Source: Microcystis aeruginosa NIES-843 (GTDB taxonomy: Bacteria; Cyanobacteriota; Cyanobacteriia; Cyanobacteriales; Microcystaceae). From it: 32,000 nt of DNA. The position numbers and the translations under genes are program-made. The stretch's first letter is position 1; the number at the start of each line of letters is the position of its first letter. The notes under the pieces were generated by a model. The model had not been told where the DNA came from. It saw only the letters and a list, made by a program, of their open reading frames with translations, and ran no database searches. This document shows, piece after piece, positions 1,573 to 20,133 of the stretch. Location of the stretch: NCBI RefSeq assembly GCF_000010625.1, contig NC_010296.1:1890001-1922000 (forward strand), given 5' to 3'.

Positions 1573-3949
1573 ATGCTTTGTTTATCTGTAGAGTCAAAAT
1601 CTCAAGGCGAAATTTTTCAGGACATTTCTACTTTTGTAGATATTTTGAACCATAGAGCATTGCAGCAAGCCGAGCAAACAGCTTATATCTTTTTGGCTAA
1701 TGGAGAAACAGAAACCGCCAGACTGACTTATCAGCAATTAGATCAAAAAGCAAAAGCTTTGGCGGCTCAACTTCAGTTACAAATGTCTCCGGGAGAAAGA
1801 GCTTTATTGCTCTATCCATCAGGGGAAGAATTTATCATTGCTTTCTTTGCCTGTTTATATGCTGGTGTTATTGCTGTTCCTGTTTATCCCCCCCGACGTA
1901 ATCAAAAGCTCTCTCGACTACAAGCAATCACTAAAGATGCTCAGGCCAAACTGGCCTTAACTACTACATCCTTATTAAGGACTATTGAGGAAAAATTTTC
2001 GAGTGATCCTGAGTTAGTAACAGTACCTTGCTTAGCTACTAATAACATCTCGGATGAGCAAGCAGAAAACTGGCAAAAACTGAATCTTTCGGTTCTTCGG
2101 TTTTTGTTATGCAATGGAGGGGGGTTATAAGGGATGAAACCCTTATATATAAAGACATTGCTTCGATTTTTGCCAATTGTTTTCGATCTAGAACGAGCTA
2201 ATCAATTAAGTCTCTTGCCAGATAAGGATTTAGTCGATTTATGCCACCCGATCAAACCATACCAAGTAACGAAGAACCAATCTTTCTTTAGAGGACATAG
2301 CTTTCCTACAATATACTTCCGGTTCAACAGGTATGCCTAAAGGAGTTATGGTTAGTCATAAAAATTTACTTCATAATGAAAGACTGATTGCTTCTGCCTT
2401 TGGACACACAAGCAAAACTATTGGTGTAGGATGGTTGCCACTATTCCATGATATGGGACTAATTGGTCACGTATTACAACCCATATACGTCGGATTTCCT
2501 TCTGTGATTATGCCTCCAGAAGCATTTATCCAAAAACCGCTCCGATGGTTACAAGCTATTTCTCGCTACAAAGCTACCAGTAGTGGTGGACCTAATTTTG
2601 CTTATGAATTATGTGCCTCTAAAATTAAACCTCAAGAGCGAGAAAATCTGGATTTAAGTTGTTGGGATGTGGCTTTTAATGGAGCCGAACCTGTGCGAGC
2701 AATTACATTAGAAAAATTTGCTAATACTTTTGCTGATAGTGGTTTTAAGAGAGAGGCATTTTACCCTTGTTATGGGATGGCTGAAACTACTCTATTTGTA
2801 TCGGGGGGAATTAAAAGCCAATCTCCTGTGATTGAAGCAGTTGATAAATTAGCTCTTTTAGAAAATAGTGCCGTTACTATTAACTGTCAACACCCGAATG
2901 CTCAGTTATTGGTCGGTTGTGGTCACGCTTGGTTATCAGAAAAAATTGTGATTGTGAATCCTGAATCGTTAACTGAATGTCGAGATGGAGAAATAGGAGA
3001 AATTTGGGTATCTAGTGATAGTGTAGCTCAGGGTTATTGGAATCGACCCGAACAGACAGAAGAAACTTTCAAAGCTTATTTAGCTGATACCCAGGTCGGT
3101 CCATTTCTGCGGACAGGAGATTTAGGATTTTTACTGGCTGGTGAGTTATTTATCACAGGCAGACTCAAGGACTTAATTATTGTTCAAGGACGTAATCATT
3201 ATCCTCAAGATATTGAATCCACCGTCGAAAAAAGTCACCTGGGATTGCGGCAAGGGTGTGGAGCAGTATTTTCAGTGGAAATTGCTGGCCAAGAAAGGCT
3301 AGTGGTTGTCCAAGAGGTAGAGCGGAGTTATCTGCGTAAATTAGACTCACCAGAGGTAATTGAGCAAATTATTCGCTCTGTTGCCGAAGAACATCAGCTA
3401 GATGTTTATGCCGTCGCACTTCTTAAGACAGCAAGTATTCCTAAAACCTCTAGTGGTAAAATTCAACGAATAGCTTGTCGGACTGCTTTCCTAGCGGGAA
3501 CTCTTGATGTGATTGGCGATTGGAGTAAAATTCCATCTCAAAAAAAGGACTTCATAAAACTAGAATCAGATGTTAATCATTTGTTAGAAAAATTAAAAAC
3601 TTTTTCGCACTTATCAGAATCATCTGAGTACAAGGCTATTTATGAAGAGATTGAACAGTGGTTAATTGCTAAATTTGCAGAACTAAAGGAAACGGCTGAT
3701 GAAAACATAGACGTTCGACAAAATATCGGATTTGATTCCTTGGTAGCTGCTGAATTAAATAATCTGTTTAACACTAACTGGGGAGTTGAAATCCCTATAG
3801 ATAATTTTATTGAAGGTGTTAGTGTTAATAGTTTAACAGCAATTTTGACTAACAAAATATCAGAGAATCGCTGGAAGTTTACGGAACAAATAGACCAAAT
3901 GAATGATGAAGAAGTGGATGCTTTACTCAGTTCCATATTATCTAAATAG
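1573..3949 (+). pseudogene. Fatty acyl-AMP ligase fused to an acyl carrier domain (FAAL-ACP), interrupted by a MITE
   Basis: ORF 1573..2130 carries a FAAL-type N-terminus (LLLYPSGEEFIIAFFACLYAGVIAVPVYPPRRNQ). ORF 2333..3949 carries the rest of the adenylation fold and a C-terminal carrier domain with GFDSL. Deleting 2091..2286 (the MITE plus one TSD copy, 196 nt) joins the frames. This regenerates ...NLSLEDIAFLQYTSGSTGMPKG, the AMP-binding core motif, and gives a 726-aa protein. Confidence 0.9.
2091..2278 (+). mobile_element. 188-bp MITE, copy 1
   Basis: Imperfect terminal inverted repeats: GGTTCTTCGGTT... at the left end and ...AAGTAACGAAGAACC at the right. An 8-bp target-site duplication AATCTTTC lies at 2083-2090 and 2279-2286. 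There is an internal hairpin TATAAGGG-ATGAAA-CCCTTATA. It is roughly 93% identical by eye to 9835..10022. No transposase is encoded. Confidence 0.9.
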
Positions 3950-3967
3950 ATAGGAGACAATTGAATC

Positions 3968-5290
3968 ATGACTACCAATATTGAGACTCTAAATTCGCTT
4001 TCATCTGCTCAAAAGCGCCATCTTTTGAAACAACTACTTTCAGAAAAATCTGACTATATGTCTCCGTCGAAAAATCCTAGCCAATGGGGTAATGAAAAAT
4101 TTCTCGATGACGCTGAGGCAGCTGGATTTCTTCTTGGTGATGGTATTCCGGTTATGGACGGGATGAGTGGCTCTCGCATTAAACGTGATGGTCGGGAAAT
4201 GATTAATTTATCAGGGATTAATTTTCTCGGACTACAACAAGAAGAGCAATTCGTTGAGATTTTCTGTAAAAATACCCGCCAATATGGTTTAGCTACGGGA
4301 GGATCTCGTCTTACTCAAGGAGTTTCCCGTCCCCATCTTTTACTGGAACAAAAGATGAACGAAATTTGGCAAAAAGATTATACTTTAACCTTTGGGACAG
4401 GAGCTTTAGCTAATATTGGTTTTATTAATGCTATGACCAGTTCTTTTGGCTTTGATGCAACTGTCACAATAGATAATCAGGATGTTGTTTTTGTTTTAGA
4501 TCGAGATTGTCACTGGAGTTTATGGAATCCGCTGGCTAACCGAAAGTTGGGTTCTCAAGTATTTGCCTTTAAGCATAATGATCCTTCTTCTCTTGAGCAA
4601 GTGTTAAAGAAGATTAAATCATCGAGGGTTATTGTCGTCTTTGAAACAGTATATTCTTCTGATGGCAGTGTAGCTCCTGTTGGTGAATTAATCGAAATTT
4701 GTGAGCGTTATGGAGCTTTATCTTACGTTGATGATGCTAACGGATTTATGATTTATGGCACTCCTAATCGACCTTTCTATCAGGAGTACAAAGCTTTACG
4801 CAGAGCTACTTTTATCATGGTTTCTTTCTCCAAAGCTGTCGGTATTGAAGGGGGAGCAATCAGTGGACCGAAAGAATTTGTCAAATCTTTTGAGATTCTC
4901 TCTGGTACTTCCTTGTTTACAGCAACTATGCAACCACCAACGGCTGCTACGAATCTGGAAATTATACAGCACTTGGAGAAAAATCCCAAAATTATGGATG
5001 ACTATCTAAAACGCTGTTTACAATTGCGAGAAACTCTAATTAATTTAGGTTTTCACCTCAATGATGTACCTTCTTACATTACCTCAATTATTATTGGTCA
5101 AGATGAAGTAGCTGAACAGGTACGACGAGACTTACTGGACATGGGGTATTGTATCCCTATATTCCGTTATCCTGCTGTTGAGCGTGGCAAGGCTTTAATT
5201 CGCTTGATGATCAACAATAAGCATACTGATGAGGATATTAATCTTTTTGTTGAAGCTCTCAAAAAAACCCGAGAGCACTATCAATTTTAA
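3968..5290 (+). CDS. PLP-dependent alpha-oxoamine synthase (AONS / serine palmitoyltransferase family)
   Basis: 440 aa. Family layout: GTGALAN...DRDCHWS...VDDANG...SFSKAVGIEGG, with the PLP lysine in SFSK at codon 289. AGGAG lies upstream of the ATG, 18 nt after the FAAL stop. Confidence 0.85.
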   Translation: MTTNIETLNSLSSAQKRHLLKQLLSEKSDYMSPSKNPSQWGNEKFLDDAEAAGFLLGDGIPVMDGMSGSRIKRDGREMINLSGINFLGLQQEEQFVEIFCKNTRQYGLATGGSRLTQGVSRPHLLLEQKMNEIWQKDYTLTFGTGALANIGFINAMTSSFGFDATVTIDNQDVVFVLDRDCHWSLWNPLANRKLGSQVFAFKHNDPSSLEQVLKKIKSSRVIVVFETVYSSDGSVAPVGELIEICERYGALSYVDDANGFMIYGTPNRPFYQEYKALRRATFIMVSFSKAVGIEGGAISGPKEFVKSFEILSGTSLFTATMQPPTAATNLEIIQHLEKNPKIMDDYLKRCLQLRETLINLGFHLNDVPSYITSIIIGQDEVAEQVRRDLLDMGYCIPIFRYPAVERGKALIRLMINNKHTDEDINLFVEALKKTREHYQF

Positions 5291-5384
5291 AGCCGACAAT
5301 ATCCAACTTCTGTCAATTAAGTTCCCATCACAAAACTAGAAAAAATGGGTAACTTACCCGATTCACAAAACCAAAAGGAGAAAA

Positions 5385-6506
5385 ATGATGATTGCCAATA
5401 CTTTACAAGCAGAAAAATGCTCAACTCTTAACGCCACTGTCAACTCTTATAATGAATGGGATCCTTTAGAAGAGGTAATCGTTGGAAGTTTAGATAATGC
5501 GGTGTTTCCCCCGAATCATCTTAGTGTTCACGCCACAATTCCTCAAAGTTTATCAAAAATATTGATGTGGTTTGGTAGCCGACGTTATCCAAAATTTTTA
5601 ATAGAAGAAGCGAGTAAGGATTTAGAACATTTCATCCATATTTTAGAATCTGAAGGAGTTACCGTCCGTCGTCCCGATGTTATGGATTTTAGCGTGACCT
5701 ACAAAACTCCCGATTGGAAATCAAAAGGGTTATGTACTGCCTGTCCGCGAGATGGTTTGTTAGTATTGGGAGACGAAATTATTGAAACCCCGATGGCATG
5801 GCGTTCTCGATATTTTGAACTCCACGCTTACCAAACATTATTAATTGAATATTTTCAAAAAGGTGCACGATGGACTGCCGCACCTAAACCCAAGTTAACC
5901 GATCGACTCTATGATCGCAACTATCAGATACCTCAAGAAGGGGAACCGATTCGCTACGTAATCACGGAATGCGAACCTGTCTTTGATGCGGCGGATTTTA
6001 TTCGCTGTGGTAAGGACATTTTTGTTACGAGAAGTAACGTGACAAATGAGATGGGAATTCAATGGCTAGAACGCCATGTTGGGGATAAATTTAATATTCA
6101 TAGAGTCGAAAGTAAATGCCGACAACCAATGCACATTGATTCTAGTTTCATGCCTCTGGCTCCTGGAAAGTTATTAGTGAACCCAGATTATATTGATGTG
6201 GCTAAAATCCCAGACATTTTTAAATCTTGGGATATTCTCATTGCTCCTAAACCCGATATTATCACAGGAGGTTTTTTCAATGCCAATGCTAGTATGTGTA
6301 GTTTATGGATTAGCATGAATGTATTAATGCTTGATGAGAAAAGGGTAATCATTGAAAAACATCAAGAAACGATGATTCGATTTCTCAAAGATCATGGATT
6401 TGAGCCAATTCCCTGCCCTTTCATGAATTACGCGCCTTTCGGTGGCTCTTTCCACTGCGCTACCTTGGATATCCGTCGTCGAGGGACGCTACAATCCTAT
6501 TTCTAG
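5385..6506 (+). CDS. Amidinotransferase (glycine amidinotransferase / CyrA / SxtG family)
   Basis: 373 aa. The C-terminus GGSFHCATLDIRRRGTLQSYF closely matches the catalytic-Cys end of AGAT-type enzymes. AAGGAG Shine-Dalgarno sequence upstream. Confidence 0.85.
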   Translation: MMIANTLQAEKCSTLNATVNSYNEWDPLEEVIVGSLDNAVFPPNHLSVHATIPQSLSKILMWFGSRRYPKFLIEEASKDLEHFIHILESEGVTVRRPDVMDFSVTYKTPDWKSKGLCTACPRDGLLVLGDEIIETPMAWRSRYFELHAYQTLLIEYFQKGARWTAAPKPKLTDRLYDRNYQIPQEGEPIRYVITECEPVFDAADFIRCGKDIFVTRSNVTNEMGIQWLERHVGDKFNIHRVESKCRQPMHIDSSFMPLAPGKLLVNPDYIDVAKIPDIFKSWDILIAPKPDIITGGFFNANASMCSLWISMNVLMLDEKRVIIEKHQETMIRFLKDHGFEPIPCPFMNYAPFGGSFHCATLDIRRRGTLQSYF

Positions 6507-6516
6507 TCTTAATCCA

Positions 6517-7185
6517 ATGCTTACCTTGACCATTTTGTGGCTGGCTTTTATTGATAGCATCAATCCCACCCCTATTGCCATCGCTATCCTGATATTTTTG
6601 TATCGGGGGACTCGGGGAGTTTGGGCTTACGTCTATGGTATTTTCTTGACTACTTTGGTTCAATCATTCGTTTTTTACTTCGGATTAAGTGAACTGCAAG
6701 AGATAATATCGAGACAACACCTATCTTCTGTTAACTGGGGCTGGCTGTTAATTCTTGTTGGAGTGGTGGTCAGTGCTTATGGATTATATCGCTGGTGTCA
6801 TAGAAAGGAAATTCCGAATCTAAGGAGGTGGGACTCTCTCCCCCCCTTAGATTACGCAAATCGACTCAAATTCTTAGCTTTTGGTAGCGCGACAACCCTC
6901 GCGGAGACACCGGGAGCGTTCCTAATGATTCTGGCTATTATTGAAATCAGAAAACTAGCAACTCCTTTCGTGTTTTTACCATTTTACTTAGGTCTTTATG
7001 CTACGATTTATACCTTGCCTATTGTTCTTTTAAATTTGGCTGGAATCTGGCATAAAAAGCCTTTAGAAACATGGCTATCTAGACATTTTAAGTTGCTTTA
7101 CCTCATTCTGAATATCACTATTAGTTTATCTTTAATCGCTTTTGGTGTATTTTTTCTTGCTATGGGAGTGAAACAATTAAGATGA
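6517..7185 (+). CDS. Small polytopic membrane protein, possible exporter (LysE/GAP-like; family uncertain)
   Basis: The track ORF 6442..7185 overlaps the upstream gene. I prefer the ATG at 6517 (MLTLTILWLAFIDSINP...). The protein is hydrophobic throughout, with about 6 predicted TM segments. Its stop overlaps the next start as ATGA at 7182-7185. Confidence 0.6.
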   Translation: MLTLTILWLAFIDSINPTPIAIAILIFLYRGTRGVWAYVYGIFLTTLVQSFVFYFGLSELQEIISRQHLSSVNWGWLLILVGVVVSAYGLYRWCHRKEIPNLRRWDSLPPLDYANRLKFLAFGSATTLAETPGAFLMILAIIEIRKLATPFVFLPFYLGLYATIYTLPIVLLNLAGIWHKKPLETWLSRHFKLLYLILNITISLSLIAFGVFFLAMGVKQLR

Positions 7186-8087
7186 CTTCTCTTTCTTCAT
7201 TTGAGAATTCGAGATCTCAAATCAAAGGGGCGGTGTTTATTTCCGCCAGTTCGTCGGGAGTTGGTAGGGTCTGTGCAAAAATTCTTGCAGAAAAAGGGTT
7301 TTGGGTTTTTACCGGACTAAGAAATTTAGATCAAGCCCGATCACTGCAACAAGAAACGGGGGGGAATACAACCCCGATCCTGCTTGATGTTACGAAAGAA
7401 GATAGCATTATCTCGGCCGCTACTCAGGTGGCAGAAGTATTAAGCAAAAAAAATCTGAAATTGTTGGGCATTATTAACAATGCCTGTCACGAGTTTCACG
7501 GGCCTTTAGAACTCCTGCCCATCGAGTTCGCCCGTCAAGAAATGGAGGTGAGCTATTTAGGCTATTTGTCAGTTATCAAAGCTTTTTTACCACTTCTGCG
7601 GCAGTCGCGAGGACGGATCGTGAATTTTAGTTCTATCAATGGACTAATCGTATTTCCGAGTGTTGGCACAGGGTGCGCCGCAAAATATGCTGTCGAGGCG
7701 ATGTCGGATGCTTTTCGTATGGAATTAGCCCCTTGGGGAATCAAAGTATCGATCATCGAACCAGGAGCGATCGCCACCCCTTTGTGGCAAAAAACCCAAG
7801 AGGCTTTTGAAGAGTTACCGAAATATGTATCGATGGAAACTCTTCAGTTATACTATCCATCTTGGTCGGAAGCTTTAAAAAAGTCGAGATCGGAAACCAA
7901 TTTATTTTACAAAATTGCCACATCACCAGAACAAGTTGTACCCTCCATTCTGCACGCGTTAACTAGCAGGAACCCCAAAATTCGCTATCGGATCGGTCTT
8001 GATGCTAAAGCTCTGGCTTTGATAAACTGGTTGTTGCCAAATTGGTTATTTGATTTTATGGCTAGGAGGGTTTTTCTCTATCGGTAG
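7182..8087 (+). CDS. Short-chain dehydrogenase/reductase (classical SDR) with an atypical active-site motif
   Basis: 301 aa. Glycine-rich NAD(P) motif SASSSGVG, NNAC (the NNAG equivalent), catalytic Ser in NFSS, and Lys in GCAAKYAVEA. The canonical Tyr four residues before that Lys is Gly. Confidence 0.8.
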   Translation: MTSLSSFENSRSQIKGAVFISASSSGVGRVCAKILAEKGFWVFTGLRNLDQARSLQQETGGNTTPILLDVTKEDSIISAATQVAEVLSKKNLKLLGIINNACHEFHGPLELLPIEFARQEMEVSYLGYLSVIKAFLPLLRQSRGRIVNFSSINGLIVFPSVGTGCAAKYAVEAMSDAFRMELAPWGIKVSIIEPGAIATPLWQKTQEAFEELPKYVSMETLQLYYPSWSEALKKSRSETNLFYKIATSPEQVVPSILHALTSRNPKIRYRIGLDAKALALINWLLPNWLFDFMARRVFLYR

Positions 8088-8300
8088 TTCTTACTGAAAA
8101 AGGATACAGATTGTCTTTTGTCCATACTAACCCCGTGTGCAACTATATTTTTAGTCTTGATTTACAAGGCTCTCAGAAATCAGCAGAGATCAAGTATCCT
8201 CTGCAACCCTGATTCTGTCGTTTTTAGTTGCACATCGCGTCATACTATAAAAACATGATTGCCGCTTATATAAAACAAAAACAACTCTCAAGAAATAGCG

Positions 8301-8568
8301 ATGAAACCTAATTCATTATCCAAGCATTCTCATCCTTTACGCTGGATTTTAGCCATTGCTATTACTGCTACAACTATTACCAGTGTGGGGGTAGTTTACC
8401 AGGTTTTGCCCTGGAGATGGGGTAAGTTCACCTATTTCTCAACCAAAAGCAACAACACCCAGTATTATAAAAGTAGCTGCGTTGGCAAGATTAGAGTCTG
8501 AAAGTGAGGTTATCCGTCTAGATGCTCCCTTACCTTTAGATGGTGATCGCATAAATTGCGATCGATGA
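8301..8568 (+). pseudogene. Frameshifted, truncated N-terminal fragment of a devB/HlyD-family paralog
   Basis: Track ORF 8301..8501 gives a signal-anchor-like start (RWILAIAITATTITSVGVVYQ). The +1 frame continues SQPKATTPSIIKVAALARLESESEVIRLDAPLPLDGDRI, then stops at 8566-8568. This parallels residues KITALGRIEPRTEIISISAPMLLDSDRV of the full devB at 8655. Confidence 0.7.
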
Positions 8569-8654
8569 ACAAATGGAATTATTAGGTAAAATTCTTACTA
8601 CTTATTTGCAGAAAAACTGTTAACCCCCAACAATCACTTATTAACTAAAAAATT

Positions 8655-10134
8655 ATGAAAGGTAAAACTTTTGTGAAACCAAATCAAAAGTTAATGATCG
8701 GGTTAATAGTATTAGGCACAGGATTATTAGGAATAACCACCTTTTATAGTCTTTCCCAAGTCGCCCCCAAACCCGAAACCAAAACTCCTGTCATTGCGTC
8801 GCCCACACCGCAAAAAATCACCGCTTTAGGCAGAATTGAACCGAGGACAGAAATTATCAGCATATCTGCCCCGATGTTGCTTGATTCCGATCGAGTCAAG
8901 CAATTATTAGTCGATGAAGGAGATAGCGTCAAAACCGGACAAATAATCGCCATTCTCGAAAGTCGGGAAAGATTAGAGGATAACCTGCGACAGGCACAAG
9001 AACAGGTGAAAGTAGCCACAGCCAAACTAGAACAGGTGAAAGCTGGCGCAAAAGTCGGCGAAATCGATGCTAATGCCGCTAACGTGCGAAAAATCGAAGC
9101 ACAATGGTTAGGGGATCAAGCAACCCAACGGACAACCATCCAAAGATTAACAGCGCAATTAGAAGGGGATAGGGCTGCCCAAAAAGCGACAATTGCTAAA
9201 TTAGAAGCAGAATATCGCAATGCCAAAGCTGAATTCGATCGCTACGAAAAACTCTATCAAGAAGGGGCAATTTCCGCCTCTAGTTTTGATAGTAAAAGAC
9301 TGAATTTAGAAACCAGTAATCAACAACTAACAGAAGCAAAAGTTACCCTAGAGAGAATTGAAAGCACCGGTAAACAACAGATAGAAGAAGCCAAGACTAC
9401 CCTAGCCCGGATTGAATCCACCGGTCAACAGCAGATCAAAGAGGCCAAATCCACTTTAAATCAAGTCTCGGAAGTGCGGGGAGTTGATGTGCGGGCAGCC
9501 GAAGCGGAGGTAAATGCTGCCCTAGTTGCCGTTAAAAAAGCCCAAACCGAGTTAAATCAGGCTTATATTCGATCGCCAATTACCGGCAAAGTGATTAAAG
9601 TCAATACCCGTATCGGGGAACAAATCAGCGATCAAGGAATTGTTGACCTTGCTGAAACCGAGCGCATGGAAGTAATTGCCGAAATCTATCAAAGCGATAT
9701 CGGGAAAATTCGCTCTGGACAAACTGCCACGATTACCGGATCGGCGTTTAAGGGCGAAGTTAGGGGAAAAGTGCGCTTAATTGCTTTAAAAGTTGACCAA
9801 CAAAATATCTTCAGCAATCAACCGGGAGAAAACTGGTTCTTCGGTTTGTGTTATGCAATGGACGGGAGTTATAAGGGGTGAAACCCTTATATAGAAAGAC
9901 ATTGCTTCGATTTTTGCCAATTGTTTTCAATCTAGAACGAGCTAATCAATTAAGTCTCTTGCCATATAAGGATTTAGTCGATTTATGCCCCCCTATCGAA
10001 CCATAACAAGTAACGAAGAGCCAGAAAACTTTGATCGCAAAGTGATCTCTGTCCGCATTGCCTTAGATCGCGAAAACAGTGAAAAAGTGGCAGGTTTAAC
10101 CAATTCCCAAGTAACTGTAACTATCAATGAGTAG
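8655..10134 (+). pseudogene. devB: DevB-type membrane fusion protein (HlyD family), interrupted by a MITE
   Basis: N-terminal TM segment, a long coiled coil and a beta-barrel region. The track ORF ends at 9881 inside the MITE. Deleting 9835..10030 (196 nt) continues the frame: ...QPGENFDRKVISVRIALDRENSEKVAGLTNSQVTVTINE, with the stop at 10132-10134 (427 aa). Confidence 0.85.
9835..10022 (+). mobile_element. 188-bp MITE, copy 2 (same family and orientation as 2091..2278)
   Basis: Same termini (GGTTCTTCGGTT ... AAGTAACGAAGAGCC). An 8-bp target-site duplication AGAAAACT lies at 9827-9834 and 10023-10030. Confidence 0.9.
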
Positions 10135-11314
10135 GTTTTCCATGAAACTAACCCATCTATTCAAAAAAACGCCCCTATCTTGGTTACAGGTGACGCGAGA
10201 GAAAACCCGTTTGATCGTAGCTATTGCCGGGATTGCTTTTGCCGACTTCCTAATTTTCACGCAGTTGGGGTTTCGGGATGCCTTATTTGATGCTTCCGTT
10301 AAACCCCATTATGTCCTCAATGCGGATTTAGTCCTGATTAATCCCCAATTCAATACCCTCTTTGCTGTGAAAAGTTTCTCGCGCGATCGCTTGTACCAAG
10401 CTAAAAGAGTCGAGGGTATTCAATCTATAGCCTCAGTTTATATTGCTTCGGCCCAGTGGCGCAATCCCGAAACTGCCCTAGAAAGAACTACTTTAGTCTT
10501 TGGTTTTGATCCCAGTCAACGGGTTTTTACCCTCCCGGAAGTTAATCAAAAATCCAGTGATCTAAAGATGTTAAATCGCGTCTTGTACGATCAAGCAGGA
10601 AGGCCAGAATTCGGACCAATTGCCGATTTACTCCAGAAAAACCCCGATTTGACAGTTCAGTTAAATAAAAAAGAGGTACAGGTAGCGGGAATTTTTACCC
10701 TTGGTGCCTCCTTTGCTGCCGATAGTAACGTCATTAGCAGTGATTCTACCTTTTTAAGGCTCTTTCCCGAACGTCAACCCCACGAAATCGATATAGGACT
10801 GGTGAAACTGCAACCGGGGGCAAATATCGAAGCAGTTAAGGTCAATTTACAGGCACTTTTCCCTAAAAATGAAGTAATAGTCCTTACTTTAAAAGAATTT
10901 GCTGAAAAGGAAAAAACCTATTGGGCAAATGGTACAGCGATTGGTTTTATCTTTGGTTTAGGTGCAGTAGTCGGTTTTATCGTCGGTATCGTTATTGTCT
11001 ATCAGATTCTCTATTCCGATGTCACCGATCACTTACCCGAATACGCTACCCTAAAAGCTATGGGTTACGGTGATTGGTATTTAGTCGGGGTTTTGATGCA
11101 AGAGGCTTTATTACTAGCCGTTTTGGGGTATATACCCGGGTTTATCGTTTCTCTCGGTGTTTATCATCTCGCTTCCTCCGCTACACTTTTACCCATAGTG
11201 ATGACTACCGCTAGGGCGATCGAAGTTTTAATCCTAACAGTTATCATGTGTATTGCCTCTGGAATTGTCGCTATGGGCAAATTAAGGACAGCAGATCCAG
11301 CCGATATTTTTTAA
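10127..11314 (+). CDS. devC: DevC-type ABC exporter permease (FtsX/MacB-like)
   Basis: 395 aa. N-terminal TM segment, a large periplasmic domain and a C-terminal cluster of TM helices. The start overlaps the reconstructed devB stop. Confidence 0.8.
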   Translation: MSRFSMKLTHLFKKTPLSWLQVTREKTRLIVAIAGIAFADFLIFTQLGFRDALFDASVKPHYVLNADLVLINPQFNTLFAVKSFSRDRLYQAKRVEGIQSIASVYIASAQWRNPETALERTTLVFGFDPSQRVFTLPEVNQKSSDLKMLNRVLYDQAGRPEFGPIADLLQKNPDLTVQLNKKEVQVAGIFTLGASFAADSNVISSDSTFLRLFPERQPHEIDIGLVKLQPGANIEAVKVNLQALFPKNEVIVLTLKEFAEKEKTYWANGTAIGFIFGLGAVVGFIVGIVIVYQILYSDVTDHLPEYATLKAMGYGDWYLVGVLMQEALLLAVLGYIPGFIVSLGVYHLASSATLLPIVMTTARAIEVLILTVIMCIASGIVAMGKLRTADPADIF

Positions 11315-11332
11315 ACTATCAAGGGTGAAATA

Positions 11333-12052
11333 ATGCTGATTTTTCAAAAAGAGCGAGAATTAGAGGATTTTAGCCCTAATGAACCCGTAATTGCCATTAA
11401 AGGCTTAAATCACTATTTTGGCACGGGGGAATTAAAAAAACAGGTTTTATACGATATCGATCTGGAAATTAAAGCGGGGGAAGTAGTGATTATGACCGGT
11501 CCTTCGGGATCGGGGAAAACTACTTTATTGAGTTTACTGGGAGGTTTGCGATCGGCACAAGCGGGCAGTTTAAAAATTCTCGGCCAAGAAATGTTAGGAA
11601 TTGGTAAGGGCAAAATGCTGAAAATTCGCCGACAAATTGGCTATATTTTTCAAGCACATAATTTACTAAAATTCCTCACAGCGAAACAAAACGTAAGGAT
11701 GTCTTTGGAACTGCACGAGGAGTTTTTAGAACAAGATCTCGATCAAAAAGCGGCGGCAATTCTGGAGTCAGTGGGTTTAGGCAACCGCGTTGATTATTAT
11801 CCCCATGATCTATCAGGGGGACAAAAACAACGGGTTGCGATCGCTCGCGCCCTCGTCAGTCATCCCAAATTAGTCCTCGCCGATGAACCGACCGCGGCCT
11901 TAGATAAACAATCCGGGCGGGATGTGGTGGAAATCATGCAGAAATTGGCAAAAGAACAAGGTTGCACGATTTTACTTGTCACCCACGATAACCGGATTCT
12001 CGACATCGCCGATCGCATTGTCAATATGGAGGATGGTCGTTTAGGCGATTAA
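11333..12052 (+). CDS. devA: DevA-type ABC exporter ATP-binding protein
   Basis: Walker A GPSGSGKTT, ABC signature LSGGQKQRVAIARAL, Walker B LVLADEPT. Confidence 0.9.
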   Translation: MLIFQKERELEDFSPNEPVIAIKGLNHYFGTGELKKQVLYDIDLEIKAGEVVIMTGPSGSGKTTLLSLLGGLRSAQAGSLKILGQEMLGIGKGKMLKIRRQIGYIFQAHNLLKFLTAKQNVRMSLELHEEFLEQDLDQKAAAILESVGLGNRVDYYPHDLSGGQKQRVAIARALVSHPKLVLADEPTAALDKQSGRDVVEIMQKLAKEQGCTILLVTHDNRILDIADRIVNMEDGRLGD

Positions 12053-12113
12053 CTGCCCAAAAATTACTTGCCAAAAATTGGCCTTTCATGTTAGACTAAA
12101 ATAATGTCATCTT

Positions 12114-12205
12114 GGAGAGGTGGCAGAGTGGTCGAATGCGGCAGATTGCTAATCTGTTGTACGAATCGTAAGACCGTACCGAGGGTTCGAATCCCTCCCT
12201 CTCCG
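12114..12205 (+). tRNA. tRNA-Ser (anticodon GCU)
   Basis: Acceptor stem GGAGAGG/CCTCTCC. Anticodon stem GCAGA/TCTGT with loop TTGCTAA. Long class II variable arm. T-arm GAGGG-TTCGAAT-CCCTC. No encoded CCA. Track ORF 12104..12337 is an artefact. Confidence 0.85.
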
Positions 12206-12224
12206 TATTTTTTGGGTAGGTTCG

Positions 12225-16488: not shown

Positions 16489-19400
16489 ATGCCAGTCCTC
16501 ACCATCCGCGAAGAAGGAATTAACGATGGTGGCTTTACTGCTACTCTCAATTTTGATAGCGGTAACAGCTACCCAATTACGGTTACTGACCCCTTTACTA
16601 ACCAAGAAGAAAAACAACTAGAATGGTACTTTGAGGAATGGTTAGTATTTCCGACGCTAGACACGGATAAGGCGCAAAAAGCCGCCAACAGCGTCCAAAA
16701 CTATGGCGAAAACCTATTTAAACAGGTTTTCCAGAGTAATTTAAATGCTTATGGGGAATATCGAGACTTGCGAAAGCAGTTAAGTCAACTGCAAATTATC
16801 ATCGAAAGTCAGTCGCCAGAATTTCAAGCTTTACATTGGGAAGCGCTGAAAGATCCTGATTTACCGCGTCCTTTTTCTATAGATTGTATCATCTCCCGCC
16901 AGCGTCGAGGGGCTACAGTTGTCCCGGTGCAAATGGCCACTTATCCTACTATCAATCTTCTGGTGGTGATTGCGCGTCCTAATGAGGAATCTGATGTTAA
17001 CTATCGCACGATTTCCCGTCCTTTGGTAGAACTGGTAAATAGTAGTGAAATACCGGTAAAAATTGATATATTGCGTCCCGGAACTTATGAATCACTAACC
17101 AGACATCTGGATGAGAAGGGAGAAGGATACTATCATGTTATTCATTTCGATGTTCATGGCGGATTAATGGAATATGAACAGTACCAAAGACAGGTTCACG
17201 GGGATTCTTGGCGCTATCAAAGGGGATGGGGACTGGAGGATTTAGCAGAATATGAGGGAGTAAAAGCTTTTCTGTTTCTGGAAGGAGAAGAAAAAGGTCA
17301 AGCGACTCCGGTAGAAGCGACGGAATTAGCGAATTTACTCACTGGGAAAAATATCCCTATTTGTATTCTCAATGCTTGTCAGTCAGCAAAGCAAATTTCC
17401 CAGGAATCAGAAGACTATCGGGAAACCAGTTTAGGGAGTCGTTTGATGACTGCGGGAATGCAAGCTGTGGTGGCGATGGGATATTCGGTGACGGTTTCTG
17501 CAGCTAAGTTGATGATGAAACCAATTTATCAGCAATTATTGAACGGAAAAGACCTAACGGAAGCGATGCGAAAGGGACGGTTAGAGTTATTCAATAATAA
17601 GCAACGCCGCGCCTATTATAACACGAGAATAGATTTAGAAGATTGGTTATTACCGGTGATTTATTGTCGCGGTAAAATTAATCTCAATTTGCGTCCATTT
17701 ACTCCAGAAGAGGAGGAAAAATACTGGGAACATATCGGCAATCAATATGTCTTTCCTTTACCAGAATACGGCTTTGTGGGAAGGGATTTAGAAATTCTCA
17801 AGATGGAAAAGGCGCTGCTGAAACATAATATCCTTTTACTCAAAGGAATGGGAGGGACAGGAAAAACTACTTTACTCAATTATCTACGAGAATGGTGGCA
17901 GAAAACCAACTGGGCGACCCATATTTTCTATTTTGGTTATGATAGAAAAGCTTGGACGTTAGAACAGATTGTCCATGAAATTGGTCAGGGAATTTATAAT
18001 CGCTTTGAACAGGCGAGTTTCCAAGCGATGAACCTGAAAGCGCGGGTAAAGAAACTAGAGCAAAAACTCCGCAGTGAGGCGTATATTCTCATTTTAGATA
18101 ATCTGGAGTCGGTGACGGGACAACCGTTAGCAATTCAGAATACTTTACCGGAGAATGAAAGGGAAGCAATCGCCGAATTTCTCAAGAATTTGGTCGGGGG
18201 AAAAACGAAGGTGATTTTGGGTTCTCGCAGTGAGGAAACTTGGCTGCAACGCAGGACTTTTAAGGAGAATATCTATCAGTTACAAGGATTAGACCAAGAG
18301 TCGAGAACTGAATTAGCGGAGAGAATCTTAGAACGTCAGGCGAAGAGTCGGAAAAATGCGATTAAAAAGGATGATTATTTTAAACGTTTGATGAAGTTGT
18401 TGGCGGGATATCCGTTGGCGATGGAAGTGGTATTAGCGAATCTGAAGCGACAGTCACCGGAGGAGATTTGGCAAGGGTTACAGTTGGCGGAATTAGCTGA
18501 TGTGGGGGATGAGGATAAGACTAATAATATCATCAAGTGTGTGGAATATTCCCACAGTAATTTGTCGGAGGAGGCGCAGAAGTTGTTACTCTGTTTAGCA
18601 CCTTTTAGTGGGTTTATTCACAGGGGTGTTATTCCTATTTATAGCCAAAAACTACAGCAATTAGAACCTTTACAAGGCTATCAGTTTGATCAATTTGATG
18701 CAGCGATAGAAGAAGCGATTCATTGGGGTTTGCTTTCGCCGATGAGTGAAGAATTGCCGTATTTATTGACTATCCAGCCCATTTTTCCCTACTTCCTGAA
18801 GACGAAGTTAAAGGAATTAGCACCAGAGACACAAGCAGCAATTTGGGAGGGTTTTAAGAATCATTACCGAGACTTGGCAGGTTATTATGATACCTTACTA
18901 GATTCCAAAAATCCGCAGGAGAAGCAGTTAGGGATATTGTTCTGTCGCTGGGAGTATGAAAATCTGTTTAATGCGTTGCAAATCGCCCTCAATCAGCAAG
19001 AGAGCGTATTGACTATTATTAATTGCTTGCATAGTTATCTGGATTTAAACCAAGATACTCAGACTAATTTAAAGCTCCTAGAGTTCGTTCTCGAAACTTT
19101 TGAAAACTATCCCCCTGAAGCCAAACAAGGGCAGGTGGCAATAGAAATCATTGGTATAATTGACGAGGCAGGAAACAAATATTTACAAAGTAAAAATTAT
19201 CAGAAAGCGAAAGAGATTTACCAAAAAAGCCTTGAATTACTCAAGCCAATTAGTGAAAGTTACAGTCAATCTAAGCAATCTTTCCAAGCCATCACCCTGC
19301 ACAATTTGGGAATCGTAGCGCAAGAATTGAGGGAATGGGAACAGGCGCGACTCTACTTCCAGCAGGCTATTGAGATCTACATTGAATATGGGGATCGCTT

Positions 19401-20133
19401 CTCCCAAGCTACCACCCTGCACCAGTTGGGAACGGTAGCGCAACAATTGAGGGAATGGGAGCAAGCCCGAAGCTACTACCAGCAAGCTATTGGGATCTGC
19501 ATTGAATATGGGGATCGCTACTCCCAAGCCATCACCCTGCACAATTTGGGAGCCGTAGCGGCAGAATTGAGGGAATGGGAGCAAGCCCGAAGCCACTACC
19601 AGCAAGCTATTGGGATCTGCATTGAATATGGGGATCGCTACTCCCAAGCCATCACCCTGCACTGTTTGGGAATGGTAGCGGCAGAATTGAGGGAATGGGA
19701 GCAAGCCCAAAGCTACTACCAGCAAGCTATTGAGATCTACATTGAATATGGGGATCGCTACTCCCAAGCCAGCACCCTGCACCACTTGGGAAACCTAGCG
19801 CAAGCATTGAGGGAATGGGAGCAAGCCCGAAGCTACTACCAGCAAGCTATTGAGATCTACATTGAATATGGGGATCGCTACTCCCAAGCTGGAACCCTGC
19901 ACAATTTGGGAATGGTAGCCAAAGCAGTTGGGGAATTGAGCCAAGCCAAAAGTTATTACCTGCAAGCCTTACAAATTTGGGCAGAATTTAACGATAATTA
20001 CACCATACAAACCTATTCTTTGCCTCGTCTTGTTGCTCTTTATCAGCAAACGCAAGATGAGGAGATTCTTGTCGGTATTGCTTCTGTTTTCGGGGTTGGG
20101 GTTGAGGAGGTGCGGGGTTTGCTGGAGGGTTAG
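16489..20133 (+). CDS. CHAT (caspase-like protease) - STAND/NB-ARC-type P-loop NTPase - TPR repeat protein (bacterial NLR-like)
   Basis: 1214 aa. Caspase-fold dyad candidates are His223 (VIHFDVHGG) and Cys297 (ILNACQSA). Walker A GMGGTGKTT (Lys459), Walker B-like ILILDNLE. The C-terminus has six 40-aa TPR-like repeats. Confidence 0.85.
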   Translation: MPVLTIREEGINDGGFTATLNFDSGNSYPITVTDPFTNQEEKQLEWYFEEWLVFPTLDTDKAQKAANSVQNYGENLFKQVFQSNLNAYGEYRDLRKQLSQLQIIIESQSPEFQALHWEALKDPDLPRPFSIDCIISRQRRGATVVPVQMATYPTINLLVVIARPNEESDVNYRTISRPLVELVNSSEIPVKIDILRPGTYESLTRHLDEKGEGYYHVIHFDVHGGLMEYEQYQRQVHGDSWRYQRGWGLEDLAEYEGVKAFLFLEGEEKGQATPVEATELANLLTGKNIPICILNACQSAKQISQESEDYRETSLGSRLMTAGMQAVVAMGYSVTVSAAKLMMKPIYQQLLNGKDLTEAMRKGRLELFNNKQRRAYYNTRIDLEDWLLPVIYCRGKINLNLRPFTPEEEEKYWEHIGNQYVFPLPEYGFVGRDLEILKMEKALLKHNILLLKGMGGTGKTTLLNYLREWWQKTNWATHIFYFGYDRKAWTLEQIVHEIGQGIYNRFEQASFQAMNLKARVKKLEQKLRSEAYILILDNLESVTGQPLAIQNTLPENEREAIAEFLKNLVGGKTKVILGSRSEETWLQRRTFKENIYQLQGLDQESRTELAERILERQAKSRKNAIKKDDYFKRLMKLLAGYPLAMEVVLANLKRQSPEEIWQGLQLAELADVGDEDKTNNIIKCVEYSHSNLSEEAQKLLLCLAPFSGFIHRGVIPIYSQKLQQLEPLQGYQFDQFDAAIEEAIHWGLLSPMSEELPYLLTIQPIFPYFLKTKLKELAPETQAAIWEGFKNHYRDLAGYYDTLLDSKNPQEKQLGILFCRWEYENLFNALQIALNQQESVLTIINCLHSYLDLNQDTQTNLKLLEFVLETFENYPPEAKQGQVAIEIIGIIDEAGNKYLQSKNYQKAKEIYQKSLELLKPISESYSQSKQSFQAITLHNLGIVAQELREWEQARLYFQQAIEIYIEYGDRFSQATTLHQLGTVAQQLREWEQARSYYQQAIGICIEYGDRYSQAITLHNLGAVAAELREWEQARSHYQQAIGICIEYGDRYSQAITLHCLGMVAAELREWEQAQSYYQQAIEIYIEYGDRYSQASTLHHLGNLAQALREWEQARSYYQQAIEIYIEYGDRYSQAGTLHNLGMVAKAVGELSQAKSYYLQALQIWAEFNDNYTIQTYSLPRLVALYQQTQDEEILVGIASVFGVGVEEVRGLLEG
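19285..20004 (+). repeat. Intragenic 120-bp tandem repeats (5 near-identical units plus 1 diverged) encoding the TPR array
   Basis: The period of 120 nt was verified from CAAGCC at 19285 and CAAGCT at 19405. The unit is QAxTLHxLGxVAxxLREWEQARSYYQQAIEIYIEYGDRYS. The antisense track ORF 19237..19785 is a by-product. Confidence 0.9.

Follow-up and report, generated by a model that had tools for sequence, protein, structure and literature searches.

The sequential use of an α-oxoamine synthase (AOS) and an amidinotransferase has two described precedents. In the early steps of saxitoxin biosynthesis, the substrate of an AOS-family enzyme is an acyl group bound to a carrier, and an amidinotransferase of the AGAT fold follows (SxtA, then SxtG, which accepts α-aminoketones; PMC12371840); the acyl group is a propionyl-ACP made by MT/GNAT domains. 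In the ketomemicin cluster, an AOS-type C-acyltransferase is paired with an amidinotransferase outside NRPS/PKS logic (KtmB and KtmE; PMC11943689), the products being pseudopeptides whose assembly from benzylmalonyl-type units involves an ATP-grasp ligase. Supply of an AOS enzyme by a dedicated adenylating enzyme and ACP is known from the bacterial sphingolipid entry module, in which the acyl-ACP synthetase AasR and AcpR serve a serine palmitoyltransferase (SPT) that is followed by a KDS reductase (PMC9386255); cyanobacterial sphingolipids have rarely been reported, and the BioF homologues of cyanobacteria are not SPTs (PMC8895605). Fusions of a fatty acyl-AMP ligase (FAAL) to a carrier domain occur as the PuwI starter modules of the puwainaphycin/minutissamide pathways, where the acyl chain goes to PKS/NRPS modules. 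The DevBCA-TolC heterocyst glycolipid exporter and the mycobacterial Sap/Gap lipid-addressing proteins both move amphiphilic lipids outward. DevBCA-type exporters place glycolipids in the heterocyst envelope.

The window analyzed here, a 32,000-nt stretch of the Microcystis aeruginosa NIES-843 chromosome, holds an uncharacterised (orphan) biosynthetic and export cluster allele at positions 1573–12052. An rRNA operon bounds it on the left (23S rRNA 3′ end, 1–533; 5S rRNA, 590–707; terminator-like hairpin, 717–750; + strand) and a tRNA-Ser(GCU) gene closes the variable locus on the right (12113–12206, + strand); radical-SAM and PBP flanking genes are common to all Microcystis alleles. The first-pass annotation had described a tight block of five genes that it did not recognise as a characterised cluster, and a search of the full-text literature likewise gave no description of it. 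On re-examination the five genes, their coordinates, spacings and motifs were all confirmed, and all five family assignments were upheld: the ORFs lie at 1573–2130, 2333–3949, 3968–5290, 5385–6506, 6442/6517–7185, and 7182–8087, with gaps of 18 nt (3949 to 3968), 94 nt (5290 to 5385) and 10 nt (6506 to the ATG at 6517) and an ATGA overlap at 7182–7185. Order and gaps stand, but the co-directional unit is longer than described, continuing past 8087 with devB, devC, and devA, and its first gene is split by a MITE. As an explanation of the whole, a FAAL/α-oxoamine synthase/amidinotransferase/SDR-like/export route to a guanidino lipid is favored here with moderate confidence.

The FAAL-ACP gene (1573–3949, + strand) encodes a fatty acyl-AMP ligase fused to a carrier domain, with Pfam matches to AMP-binding, AMP-dom_DIP2-like (the C-terminal subdomain) and PP-binding, and the carrier serine lies within GFDSL (3728–3742). 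Its top NCBIfam matches are all FAAL families, yet each falls under its cut-off. The gene is present as two ORFs rather than one: a 188-bp MITE (copy 1, 2091–2278), absent at the orthologous position in M. ichthyoblabe (L002) and in L081, L082 and L095, puts a stop codon at 2131 and shifts the frame by 196 nt. This copy has terminal inverted repeats GGTTCTTCG / CGAAGAACC and an 8-bp target-site duplication, AATCTTTC, at 2083–2090 and 2279–2286; its removal in silico restores an ORF of 726 aa, and intact 726-aa alleles, 97–98% identical, occur in M. aeruginosa TAIHU98 and others. A second copy, 94% identical to the first, lies in devB (9835–10022; target-site duplication AGAAAACT at 9827–9834 and 10023–10030), where it replaces the last 34 DevB residues so that the ORF stops at 9881; without the MITE and the target duplication, devB encodes 427 aa, identical at 427/427 positions to DevB of TAIHU98. 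MITEs of one family have thus recently inserted twice, interrupting the FAAL and truncating DevB, and the pathway is therefore probably off or crippled in the NIES-843 genome. A MITE-free allele, which the first-pass annotation had proposed to look for, exists in TAIHU98, where the intact cluster is 99.7% identical; every other Microcystis copy examined carries a lesion.

The reconstructed FAAL-ACP has the same two-domain architecture as PuwI, its closest named homologue (58% identity over 94%), but the proposed acceptor in the window is a free-standing α-oxoamine synthase (hereafter AONS). FAAL-ACP adjoins AONS in the window and in L081, L082, L092, and L095; a stand-alone ACP lies beside AONS in L089, and P0145 is a fused FAAL-ACP-AONS protein. 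At the same locus in M. ichthyoblabe, FAAL-ACP is fused to a full reducing PKS module, accompanied by a second ACP, and this single module precedes AONS. The earlier description of the pathway as PKS/NRPS-free accordingly fits the window allele and is allele-specific. These several carrier-linked forms of acyl supply beside AONS count in favor of the proposed route.

AONS (3968–5290, + strand; Pfam Aminotran_1_2) carries its PLP lysine in SFSK (4823–4834). Its highest-scoring NCBIfam model is BioF (TIGR00858; 231 bits, cut-off 426), followed by SPT (196 bits, cut-off 500, and under the cut-offs of all three SPT models), KBL (175, cut-off 460), ALAS (169.5, cut-off 338.55), and CqsA-type enzymes (132, cut-off 428); its nearest solved relatives are ALAS and SPT (E 1e-36 to 1e-32). 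The motif DDANGF (4730–4747) stands in place of DEAH, so that the position of the histidine that contacts PLP-O3′ in AOS enzymes is Asn, while the Lys, the stacking His, the Asp, and two Arg are all kept. This Asn is invariant in 121/121 relatives, and the substitution is therefore probably functional. AONS, which scores below every curated cut-off, is not orthologous to BioF, KBL, SPT, or ALAS; it falls in an unassigned α-oxoamine-synthase subfamily in which DDANGF is invariant and which presumably differs from that of the saxitoxin enzyme.

The amidinotransferase (AMT; 5385–6506, + strand) gave no match in a Pfam search, but it aligns along its entire length with solved structures (SxtG 6u1r, E 1e-135; human AGAT, 1e-100; HsvA, 3e-98; StrB1, 2e-83), which places it among the L-arginine-dependent amidinotransferases of the AGAT/SxtG/StrB1 fold family. 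Its C-terminus carries FHCATLDIRRRGTLQSYF, its catalytic Cys lies in FHCATLD (6450–6470), and the Cys/His/Asp/Asp catalytic residues are conserved. Genes of the set are kept together across cyanobacteria and also in an actinobacterium: Rivularia PCC 7116 has AONS (69% identical), AMT (80%), an IS remnant, SfLAP, and SDR (57%); a metagenome contig (L091) has AONS, AMT (80%), SDR, SfLAP, a methyltransferase, FAAL, and a desaturase; and Nonomuraea (L096) has AMT (52%), an SDR lacking the catalytic Tyr (46%), an MFS protein, and AONS (46%). Because the same set recurs in such distant genomes, it is more than a chance association, and the recurring synteny supports a functional unit. Other members of the family carry a methyltransferase in place of the amidinotransferase, or an added PKS module; several sister cassettes (L082, L083, L089, L092) have no amidinotransferase, and amidination is thus an accessory step.

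The alternative that survives best, although it is unlikely, takes up this last point: the core product would be a plain long-chain amino-ketone or amino-alcohol, and AMT a recent, loosely coupled or unrelated passenger making, for example, a small guanidino metabolite. Besides the AMT-less cassettes, it can appeal to AMT homologues of 58–69% identity that are widespread in unrelated contexts and to synonymous divergence between the window and M. ichthyoblabe, where dS is 0.035 for AMT and 0.83 for the flanking AONS, a difference that points to recombination at AMT; near-identical between otherwise diverged alleles, AMT may have passed from one Microcystis allele to another in this way instead of diverging in step with AONS. 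However, the AONS-AMT adjacency repeats in Rivularia, L091, and Nonomuraea, and the AMTs of the window, Rivularia, and L091 form a distinct cyanobacterial subclade (80% identity, vs. ≤69% to other cyanobacterial homologues), though identity to the Nonomuraea copy is no more than 52%. Non-orthologous FAAL-ACP-AOS fusions also occur beside an AMT in Nostoc (L030) and, in a Bradyrhizobium MAG (L027), at a distance of 6 kb from an AMT, and both AMT (dN/dS 0.06–0.16) and AONS (0.11–0.18) are under purifying selection.

Next, and improbable, is a saxitoxin-like substrate, in which AONS would join arginine or another basic amino acid to the fatty acyl-ACP and AMT would yield a bis-guanidine that cyclises. 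Among characterised two-step precedents the SxtA–SxtG pair comes closest (PMC12371840), and no solved structure matches AMT better than SxtG. The 59% identity between these two, however, is similar to that with many bacterial homologues, and AMT lacks the acidic LEEL insertion of SxtG (E58/E59) and has Gln at the position of E255, as generic bacterial homologues do; these acidic residues were proposed to attract the cationic substrate of SxtG (PMC12371840). The earlier label "AGAT/CyrA/SxtG-type" therefore holds for the fold family and not for an SxtG type in particular. A search of the window found neither an sxt-type Rieske oxygenase gene nor any further sxt tailoring genes, and the cluster, unlike that for saxitoxin, has a free-standing AONS, would start from a FAAL-loaded fatty acid, and adds SfLAP and a DevBCA export set; it differs from the ketomemicin cluster in its fatty-acid loading module and in having no aldolase, dehydratase, or ligase genes.

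Downstream of AMT lies a gene for an SfLAP-family polytopic membrane protein (6517–7185, + strand; PF11139, 51.5 bits, cut-off 35), a product of 222 aa from the ATG at 6517 with about six hydrophobic segments by hydropathy; all cyanobacterial cassettes of this family include it, and it is presumed to be a lipid-export accessory. The SDR gene (7182–8087, + strand; Pfam adh_short, 112 bits) encodes the Rossmann motif SASSSGVG (7242–7265) and NNAC (7476–7487), but alignment to DHRS9 places Gly164, within GTGCAAKY (7665–7688), at the catalytic Tyr position. Gly, Ser, or Asn occupies this position throughout a subfamily of about 47 proteins, which travels with the amidinotransferase and adjoins AMT and AONS in Rivularia and Nonomuraea. 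The protein is thus a member of the SDR family, as first annotated, but not a canonical ketoreductase: simple ketoreduction is doubtful, and with the catalytic Tyr missing across the subfamily a 3-ketosphinganine-reductase-like step is not a safe label (KDS-reductase model NF049977, 126.5, cut-off 400). The export genes all pass NCBIfam cut-offs: devB, for a membrane-fusion protein (8655–10134, + strand, interrupted near its 3′ end; TIGR02971, 277 bits, cut-off 129), devC, for a permease (10142–11314, + strand, start set by the 390-aa orthologues in L081 and L095; TIGR01185, 493 bits, cut-off 290), and devA, for an ATPase (11333–12052, + strand; TIGR02982, 378.6 bits, cut-off 295.8).

SfLAP and these export genes, together with the acyl-ACP synthetase, ACP, and AOS logic shared with sphingolipid entry (PMC9386255), would also suit another kind of product: not a bioactive metabolite for secretion but a constitutive cationic lipid of the outer membrane, comparable to sphingolipids or ornithine lipids. 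This reading is unlikely: the cluster is patchy and strain-variable in distribution, has alternative alleles at one locus, and is frequently inactivated in Microcystis, and for these reasons behaves like accessory metabolism. In addition, Pfam and NCBIfam profiles found no ceramide synthase or N-acyltransferase in the cluster, which has a nearby SDR gene in common with the sphingolipid module but, unlike it, has an amidinotransferase. That AONS is a housekeeping BioF or Kbl in a coincidental neighborhood is very improbable, even though BioF is its top model and some sources call its relatives "8-amino-7-oxononanoate synthase," since it scores far under the BioF cut-off and below those of the other AOS equivalogs, has the family-specific DDANGF motif, and lies in a conserved gene order among genes for carrier proteins, SfLAP, and exporters, and since an IS interrupts the AONS gene in a complete Microcystis genome, which makes an essential biotin role unlikely.

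The favored guanidino-lipid route is drawn from family chemistry. FAAL would adenylate a free fatty acid and load its own ACP; in a decarboxylating condensation of the acyl-S-ACP with a small amino acid, AONS would release a long-chain α-aminoketone; AMT would transfer the amidino group of L-arginine to the amine, and the resulting α-guanidinoketone could cyclise to a cyclic guanidine. The SDR-like protein would then process the intermediate by C=O or C=N reduction or in a non-redox role, the weakest step of the scheme. Finally, SfLAP, DevBCA, and an outer-membrane partner whose gene lies elsewhere would together export the cationic lipid from the cytoplasmic membrane; Microcystis is unicellular and has no heterocysts, and the predicted cargo is cationic and nitrogenous, unlike the glycolipids and sulfolipids of the DevBCA-TolC and Sap/Gap systems. 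The amino-acid substrate, the SDR step, and the product are inferred, and with the substrate the "sphingoid-like" label of the first-pass annotation is putative; the product would most likely be a fatty α-aminoketone or alcohol bearing an N-amidino group, or the corresponding cyclic guanidine.

The frequent lesions in Microcystis could mark a decaying cluster. The locus is one of a family of modular cassettes that have an unusual α-oxoamine synthase and an SfLAP membrane protein as their core, and in its intact form most likely converts a fatty acid to a lipid that bears a guanidine head group and is exported.

Gene content, conserved linkage, catalytic residues, exporter identity and gene disruptions were established for window positions 1573–12052, where known enzyme families occur in a conserved but undescribed combination that includes two atypical subfamilies. 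The first-pass annotation recognized five of these genes (1573–8087) as a candidate route to a guanidinylated sphingoid-like lipid. The ORF list contains exactly the same genes, with intergenic gaps of 18, 94, and 10 nt, an ATGA overlap at 7182–7185, and the quoted motifs GFDSL (3728–3742), SFSK (4823–4834), and, at the C-terminus of the amidinotransferase, FHCATLDIRRRGTLQSYF. The limits assigned to the cluster were too short: devB, devC, and devA continue past 8087 on the same strand to 12052. On the left, the cluster is bounded by the terminal part of an rRNA operon (23S rRNA end, 1–533; 5S rRNA, 590–707), a terminator-like hairpin following that operon (717–750), and a DUF2288 gene; on the right it is bounded by tRNA-Ser(GCU) at 12113–12206. 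Scans for promoters and terminators gave counts near background, with no usable operon boundary except the rRNA terminator, and a search of a plasmid collection with the window matched the rRNA end alone. Two features lie within the presumed promoter region of the cluster: a perfect 42-bp tandem duplication within 1412–1499, which precedes the FAAL start by 75 bp and is shared with Microcystis aeruginosa TAIHU98, and a segment of ~107 bp (1250–1356) that has no counterpart in TAIHU98. Elsewhere in the window are genes for housekeeping and unrelated proteins (PBP2, a zinc ADH, MetH), among them a large 1214-aa protein with CHAT-protease, NB-ARC/NACHT, and TPR regions (16489–20133) that bears no relation to the cluster; this architecture is frequently linked with conflict or programmed-death systems.

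The functional state implied by the first-pass annotation needs correction, as two genes of this copy are interrupted by MITEs. Alignment with three orthologous loci revealed a 196-bp insertion in the FAAL gene, consisting of a 188-bp element (2091–2278) with terminal inverted repeats GGTTCTTCG / CGAAGAACC and a duplicated 8-bp target, AATCTTTC. The element splits the reading frame, which is intact in alleles elsewhere, and its excision in silico yields a clean 726-aa FAAL-ACP. A second copy of the same 188-bp family, 94% identical to the first, lies within devB (9835–10022) and is likewise flanked by an 8-bp target duplication, AGAAAACT; its removal restores a 427-aa DevB that matches the TAIHU98 protein at 427/427 residues. 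TAIHU98 carries neither insertion. Because FAAL is split and DevB lacks its C-terminus, the pathway is probably inactive in the NIES-843 genome. Further copies of the element were seen at two other Microcystis loci, one in the SDR-devB spacer of L081 (7339–7525) and one upstream of FAAL in L093 (9707–9895).

Save for the two MITE insertions, the window and TAIHU98 are 99.7–99.8% identical across the cluster, and all genes of TAIHU98 (ANKQ01000002.1, 354735–364822 from FAAL to devA) are intact (FAAL-ACP, 726 aa; AONS, 440 aa; amidinotransferase, 372 aa; SfLAP, 222 aa; SDR, 301 aa; DevB, 427 aa; DevC, 390 aa; DevA, 239 aa), making it the only fully intact cluster among the Microcystis copies examined. 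Independent lesions occur in other strains: in M. aeruginosa HE972954, FAAL is split by a ~91-bp insertion (L081:1364–1456), and in the complete genome CP097576.1 and M. wesenbergii FACHB-1317 an ISL3 transposase lies within the AONS gene (L093:13191–14405; L094:4590–4742). At this chromosomal position M. ichthyoblabe FBCC-A1114 has another allele (L002, 23–15698): its FAAL-ACP continues into a complete reducing PKS module, giving a 2850-aa FAAL-ACP-KS-AT-DH-ER-KR-ACP protein that is predicted to lengthen the chain by two carbons, a TetR regulator stands where the window has the SDR, and DevBCA has diverged. Its AONS, amidinotransferase, and SfLAP are 84, 99, and 87% identical to those of the window, and the amidinotransferase of the window is 99–100% identical to copies in Microcystis genomes. 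Since dS between the window and FBCC-A1114 is 0.83 for AONS vs. 0.035 for the amidinotransferase, the locus is a recombination mosaic. A 3.9-kb contig from a MAG labelled Snowella sp. holds the FAAL 3′ end, AONS, amidinotransferase, and SfLAP at 97–100% protein identity to the window, and either was mis-binned from Microcystis or stems from very recent transfer.

The FAAL halves (1573–2130 and 2333–3949) fit the assignment of a FAAL with a carrier domain. An ANL adenylation fold is indicated by AMP-binding matches to PF00501 on both halves and by a DIP2-like C-terminal subdomain (PF23024) on the C-terminal half, which is followed by a PP-binding carrier domain (PF00550, 23.1 vs. a cut-off of 20.8) with the phosphopantetheinyl Ser in GFDSL. 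The top named matches of the reconstructed protein are all FAAL models (FadD32, 465 bits; PRK12476, 462 bits; PRK05850, 459 bits), each below the narrow family cut-offs of 775–975 bits and well above the scores of FACL models. The closest named relative is PuwI (58% identity), the FAAL-ACP starter of the puwainaphycins.

The AONS gene (3968–5290) encodes a protein of the class I/II aminotransferase fold whose placement among the α-oxoamine synthases (AOS) holds: the SFSK Lys, DCHWS His, VDD Asp, FRYP Arg, and LIR Arg align with SPT K265, H159, D231, R378, and R390, corresponding to the PLP Lys, the PLP-stacking His, the Asp that contacts PLP N1, and two carboxylate-binding Arg residues. The Lys, His, Asp, and second Arg are invariant across the family. 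One canonical residue is missing; the DEAH His that hydrogen-bonds PLP O3′ (SPT H234), and that BioF, KBL, SPT, ALAS, and CqsA all possess, is replaced by Asn in a DDANGF motif (N258 of the window AONS), as it is in 121/121 relatives, which include proteobacterial, myxobacterial, and actinobacterial proteins. Scores against the NCBIfam models all fall below the cut-offs (BioF, 231 vs. 426 bits; SPT, 196 vs. 500; KBL, 175 vs. 460; ALAS, 169.5 vs. 338.55; CqsA-type, 132 vs. 428). Together with the invariant Asn, these scores place the protein by sequence in a distinct, uncharacterized AOS subfamily. A housekeeping BioF/Kbl identity, against which the first-pass annotation had proposed a check, was rejected on the same curated cut-offs, the different motif, and the gene context. 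In the large DDANGF subfamily (window positions 4730–4747; proteins P0001–P0120), members from Pseudomonas and Cystobacter (L087, L088) adjoin genes for FemAB-like acyltransferases, accompanied by either an MFS transporter or a methyltransferase, in contexts that are likewise uncharacterized.

The product of 5385–6506 falls in no Pfam family and is nonetheless a full-length homologue (~355 residues aligned) of solved amidinotransferases, namely SxtG (6u1r, E = 1e-135), human AGAT (1e-100), HsvA (3e-98), and StrB1 (2e-83). Equivalents of the AGAT/SxtG/StrB1 residues C362, H258, D131, and D209 (SxtG numbering) are conserved, so that of the proposed AGAT/CyrA/SxtG-type assignment the AGAT/SxtG-fold family stands. 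The SxtG-type label does not: identity is 59% to SxtG and 48% to AGAT, SxtG is no nearer than many bacterial homologues, and the acidic pocket of SxtG is absent, with E58 and E59 deleted along with the LEEL insertion, E255 replaced by Gln, and E276 by Asp. The LEEL insertion and E255 have been proposed to draw in the cationic substrate of SxtG (PMC12371840). Specific orthology to SxtG was therefore rejected on the generic level of identity and the missing insertion. The AONS-linked cyanobacterial amidinotransferases form a group of their own, in which those of the window, Rivularia, and the metagenome contig L091 are 80% identical and other cyanobacterial homologues reach at most 69%; that of Nonomuraea is more distant from the window enzyme (52%). 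Four Nostocales loci (L013, L029, L034, L051) carry amidinotransferase homologues of 59–62% identity with KS/AT/KR genes within 10 kb, apparently a hglE/PUFA-type context, distinct from the cluster and likewise uncharacterized.

The SDR (7182–8087) belongs to the adh_short family, as first annotated; the 3-ketoreductase role assigned to it is not sustained. In alignments with sister cassettes and DHRS9, the Ser and Lys of the Ser-Tyr-Lys triad are present and the Tyr position is Gly164. The same position is G, S, or N in most of a subfamily of ~47 proteins (P0241–P0287; window positions 7665–7688), with Y in six only, and AAKYA(V/I)EA is invariant in the Tyr-less subfamily; more distant relatives are canonical. 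The Rossmann and NNAG motif positions read SASSSGVG (first Gly = Ala) vs. TGxxxGxG and NNAC vs. NNAG, and the KDS-reductase (KdsR) equivalog NF049977 scores 126.5 bits, far below its cut-off of 400. A canonical 3-ketoreductase is thus not accepted, since most of the subfamily lacks the Tyr, and this absence and the low KDS-reductase score make the ketoreductase step the least secure part of the original proposal. Microcystis, Rivularia, and Nonomuraea each pair AONS and the amidinotransferase with an SDR of this Tyr-less type; methyltransferase cassettes have a canonical SDR.

The small polytopic membrane protein (6442/6517–7185) is an SfLAP protein (PF11139, 51.5 bits vs. 35) with ~6 hydrophobic segments, and the adjacent genes encode a DevBCA exporter (DevB, TIGR02971, 277 vs. 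129; DevC, TIGR01185, 493 vs. 290; DevA, TIGR02982, 378.6 vs. 295.8). Within devB, a 54-bp imperfect tandem repeat (9332–9436; 1.9 copies, 76% matches) falls in a repeated coiled-coil segment (…RIESTG.QQI.EAK…).

Close relatives of the AONS (at least 67% identity) form a clade in cyanobacteria and metagenomes, and their neighborhoods form a modular series. Rivularia PCC 7116 has AONS, amidinotransferase (80%), SfLAP, and SDR (57%); a hidden FAAL was sought in the 1.9-kb gap between amidinotransferase and SfLAP, which holds only short ORFs that by eye resemble IS/transposase remnants. Contig L091 has AONS, amidinotransferase (80%), SDR, SfLAP, methyltransferase, FAAL, and desaturase. Sister cassettes carry FAAL-ACP, AONS, SDR, SfLAP, and DevB (L092), FAAL-ACP, AONS (88%), methyltransferase, SfLAP, and DevBCA (L082), or ACP, AONS, SDR, SfLAP, and methyltransferase (L089/L090). 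Gloeothece verrucosa PCC 7822 has AONS, SDR, a 422-aa protein, SfLAP, TetR, and DevBCA; the 422-aa protein (L083:12358–13626), which occupies the amidinotransferase position, was considered as a divergent amidinotransferase and rejected, showing no similarity to that enzyme and no Pfam/NCBIfam match. The constant core is therefore AONS and SfLAP, with an SDR in most; the acyl-supply part differs (FAAL-ACP, free ACP, PKS module, or none), as does the presumed amine-capping enzyme (amidinotransferase, methyltransferase, or both). Beyond cyanobacteria, Nonomuraea sp. NPDC050790 carries contiguous genes for amidinotransferase (52%), SDR (46%), MFS, and AONS (46%). The synteny that the first-pass annotation proposed to check was thus recovered, with AONS, amidinotransferase, and SDR recurring together in Rivularia, L091, and Nonomuraea, and AONS and the amidinotransferase are under purifying selection (dN/dS 0.06–0.18). 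Non-orthologous FAAL-ACP-AOS tri-domain proteins also occur near amidinotransferases, adjacent in Nostoc (L030:11449–14961; 1170 aa) and separated by 6 kb in a Bradyrhizobium MAG (L027:680–4075; 1131 aa); their AOS parts are just 23–24% identical to the window AONS, and they seem to represent the same logic arrived at independently.

Precedents exist for parts of this arrangement: SxtA followed by SxtG for an AOS and then an amidinotransferase (PMC12371840), KtmB plus KtmE for the same pair of activities (PMC11943689), and AasR/AcpR/SPT for an acyl-ACP synthetase, ACP, and AOS (PMC9386255). Of the known systems, saxitoxin comes nearest, as the cluster logic resembles the first two saxitoxin steps but is fatty-acid-primed and joined to a lipid exporter; with the SxtG acidic pocket and the sxt gene context both absent, and no other sxt-type genes found in the window, it is not an sxt cluster. 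A sphingolipid pathway and a ketomemicin cluster were each dismissed, as a defining feature was lacking on test. Within the open full-text literature, the orphan status suggested at the outset holds: no description of the cluster was found there, and it goes unmentioned both in a review from 2025 on guanidine natural products of cyanobacteria and in a survey from 2026 of amidinotransferases associated with BGCs. The accessible part of Humbert et al. (2013) lists the orphan Microcystis clusters MIC1–3 and does not identify this gene set. Overall, the first-pass interpretation is partly supported. Its family calls and synteny survive, as does, within the literature covered, its orphan status; it gives way on what the SDR does, on the label SxtG-type, on where the cluster ends, and on whether this copy is functional.

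The most likely pathway steps, and the product, we infer wholly from family chemistry. FAAL would adenylate a fatty acid and load its own ACP; AONS would condense a small amino acid with decarboxylation to give an α-aminoketone; the amidinotransferase, with arginine as donor, would convert the amine to a guanidine, a product that could cyclize; the SDR-like protein would act in some unspecified manner on the guanidino intermediate; and the cationic lipid would be exported by SfLAP and DevBCA. For Gly and C16:0 as example substrates, the calculated [M+H]+ values are 270.279 for the aminoketone, 312.301 after amidination (a gain of 42.022 Da), 314.317 after reduction, and 294.290 for the cyclodehydrated 2-aminoimidazole; Ala in place of Gly would raise them by 14.016 and Ser by 30.011. 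A bolder reading, possible and on balance doubtful, is that the DDANGF AONS, the amidinotransferase, and the Tyr-less SDR may constitute an unrecognized three-enzyme module of cyanobacteria and actinobacteria that makes cyclic-guanidine lipids (2-iminoimidazolidine or 2-aminoimidazole) from fatty acids, with the SDR catalyzing a non-classical reaction, e.g., C=N reduction of a cyclized guanidino-ketone, rather than classical ketoreduction. If so, bloom-forming Microcystis would export a new class of cationic lipid that might act as a toxin or allelochemical, and strains would differ in chain-building (PKS module or none) and head-group capping (amidino or methyl).

The enzymology is of note for an α-oxoamine synthase whose PLP-binding His, canonical elsewhere, is Asn and for an SDR subfamily without its catalytic Tyr. 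The locus also supplies natural controls, comprising the intact TAIHU98 allele, alleles disrupted by MITEs, ISs, or indels, one extended by a PKS module, and cassettes in which a methyltransferase replaces the amidinotransferase, so that the structure-gene relationship is testable by comparative metabolomics. Microcystis is the principal genus to form blooms in fresh water, and peptides are what its unexplained toxic and allelopathic effects have mostly been traced to; PKS/NRPS-light clusters of this kind are poorly flagged by standard mining tools. An orphan pathway in so ecologically important a genus is attractive and testable, and if so small a cluster does yield an exported guanidinium lipid, another chemical class would be added.
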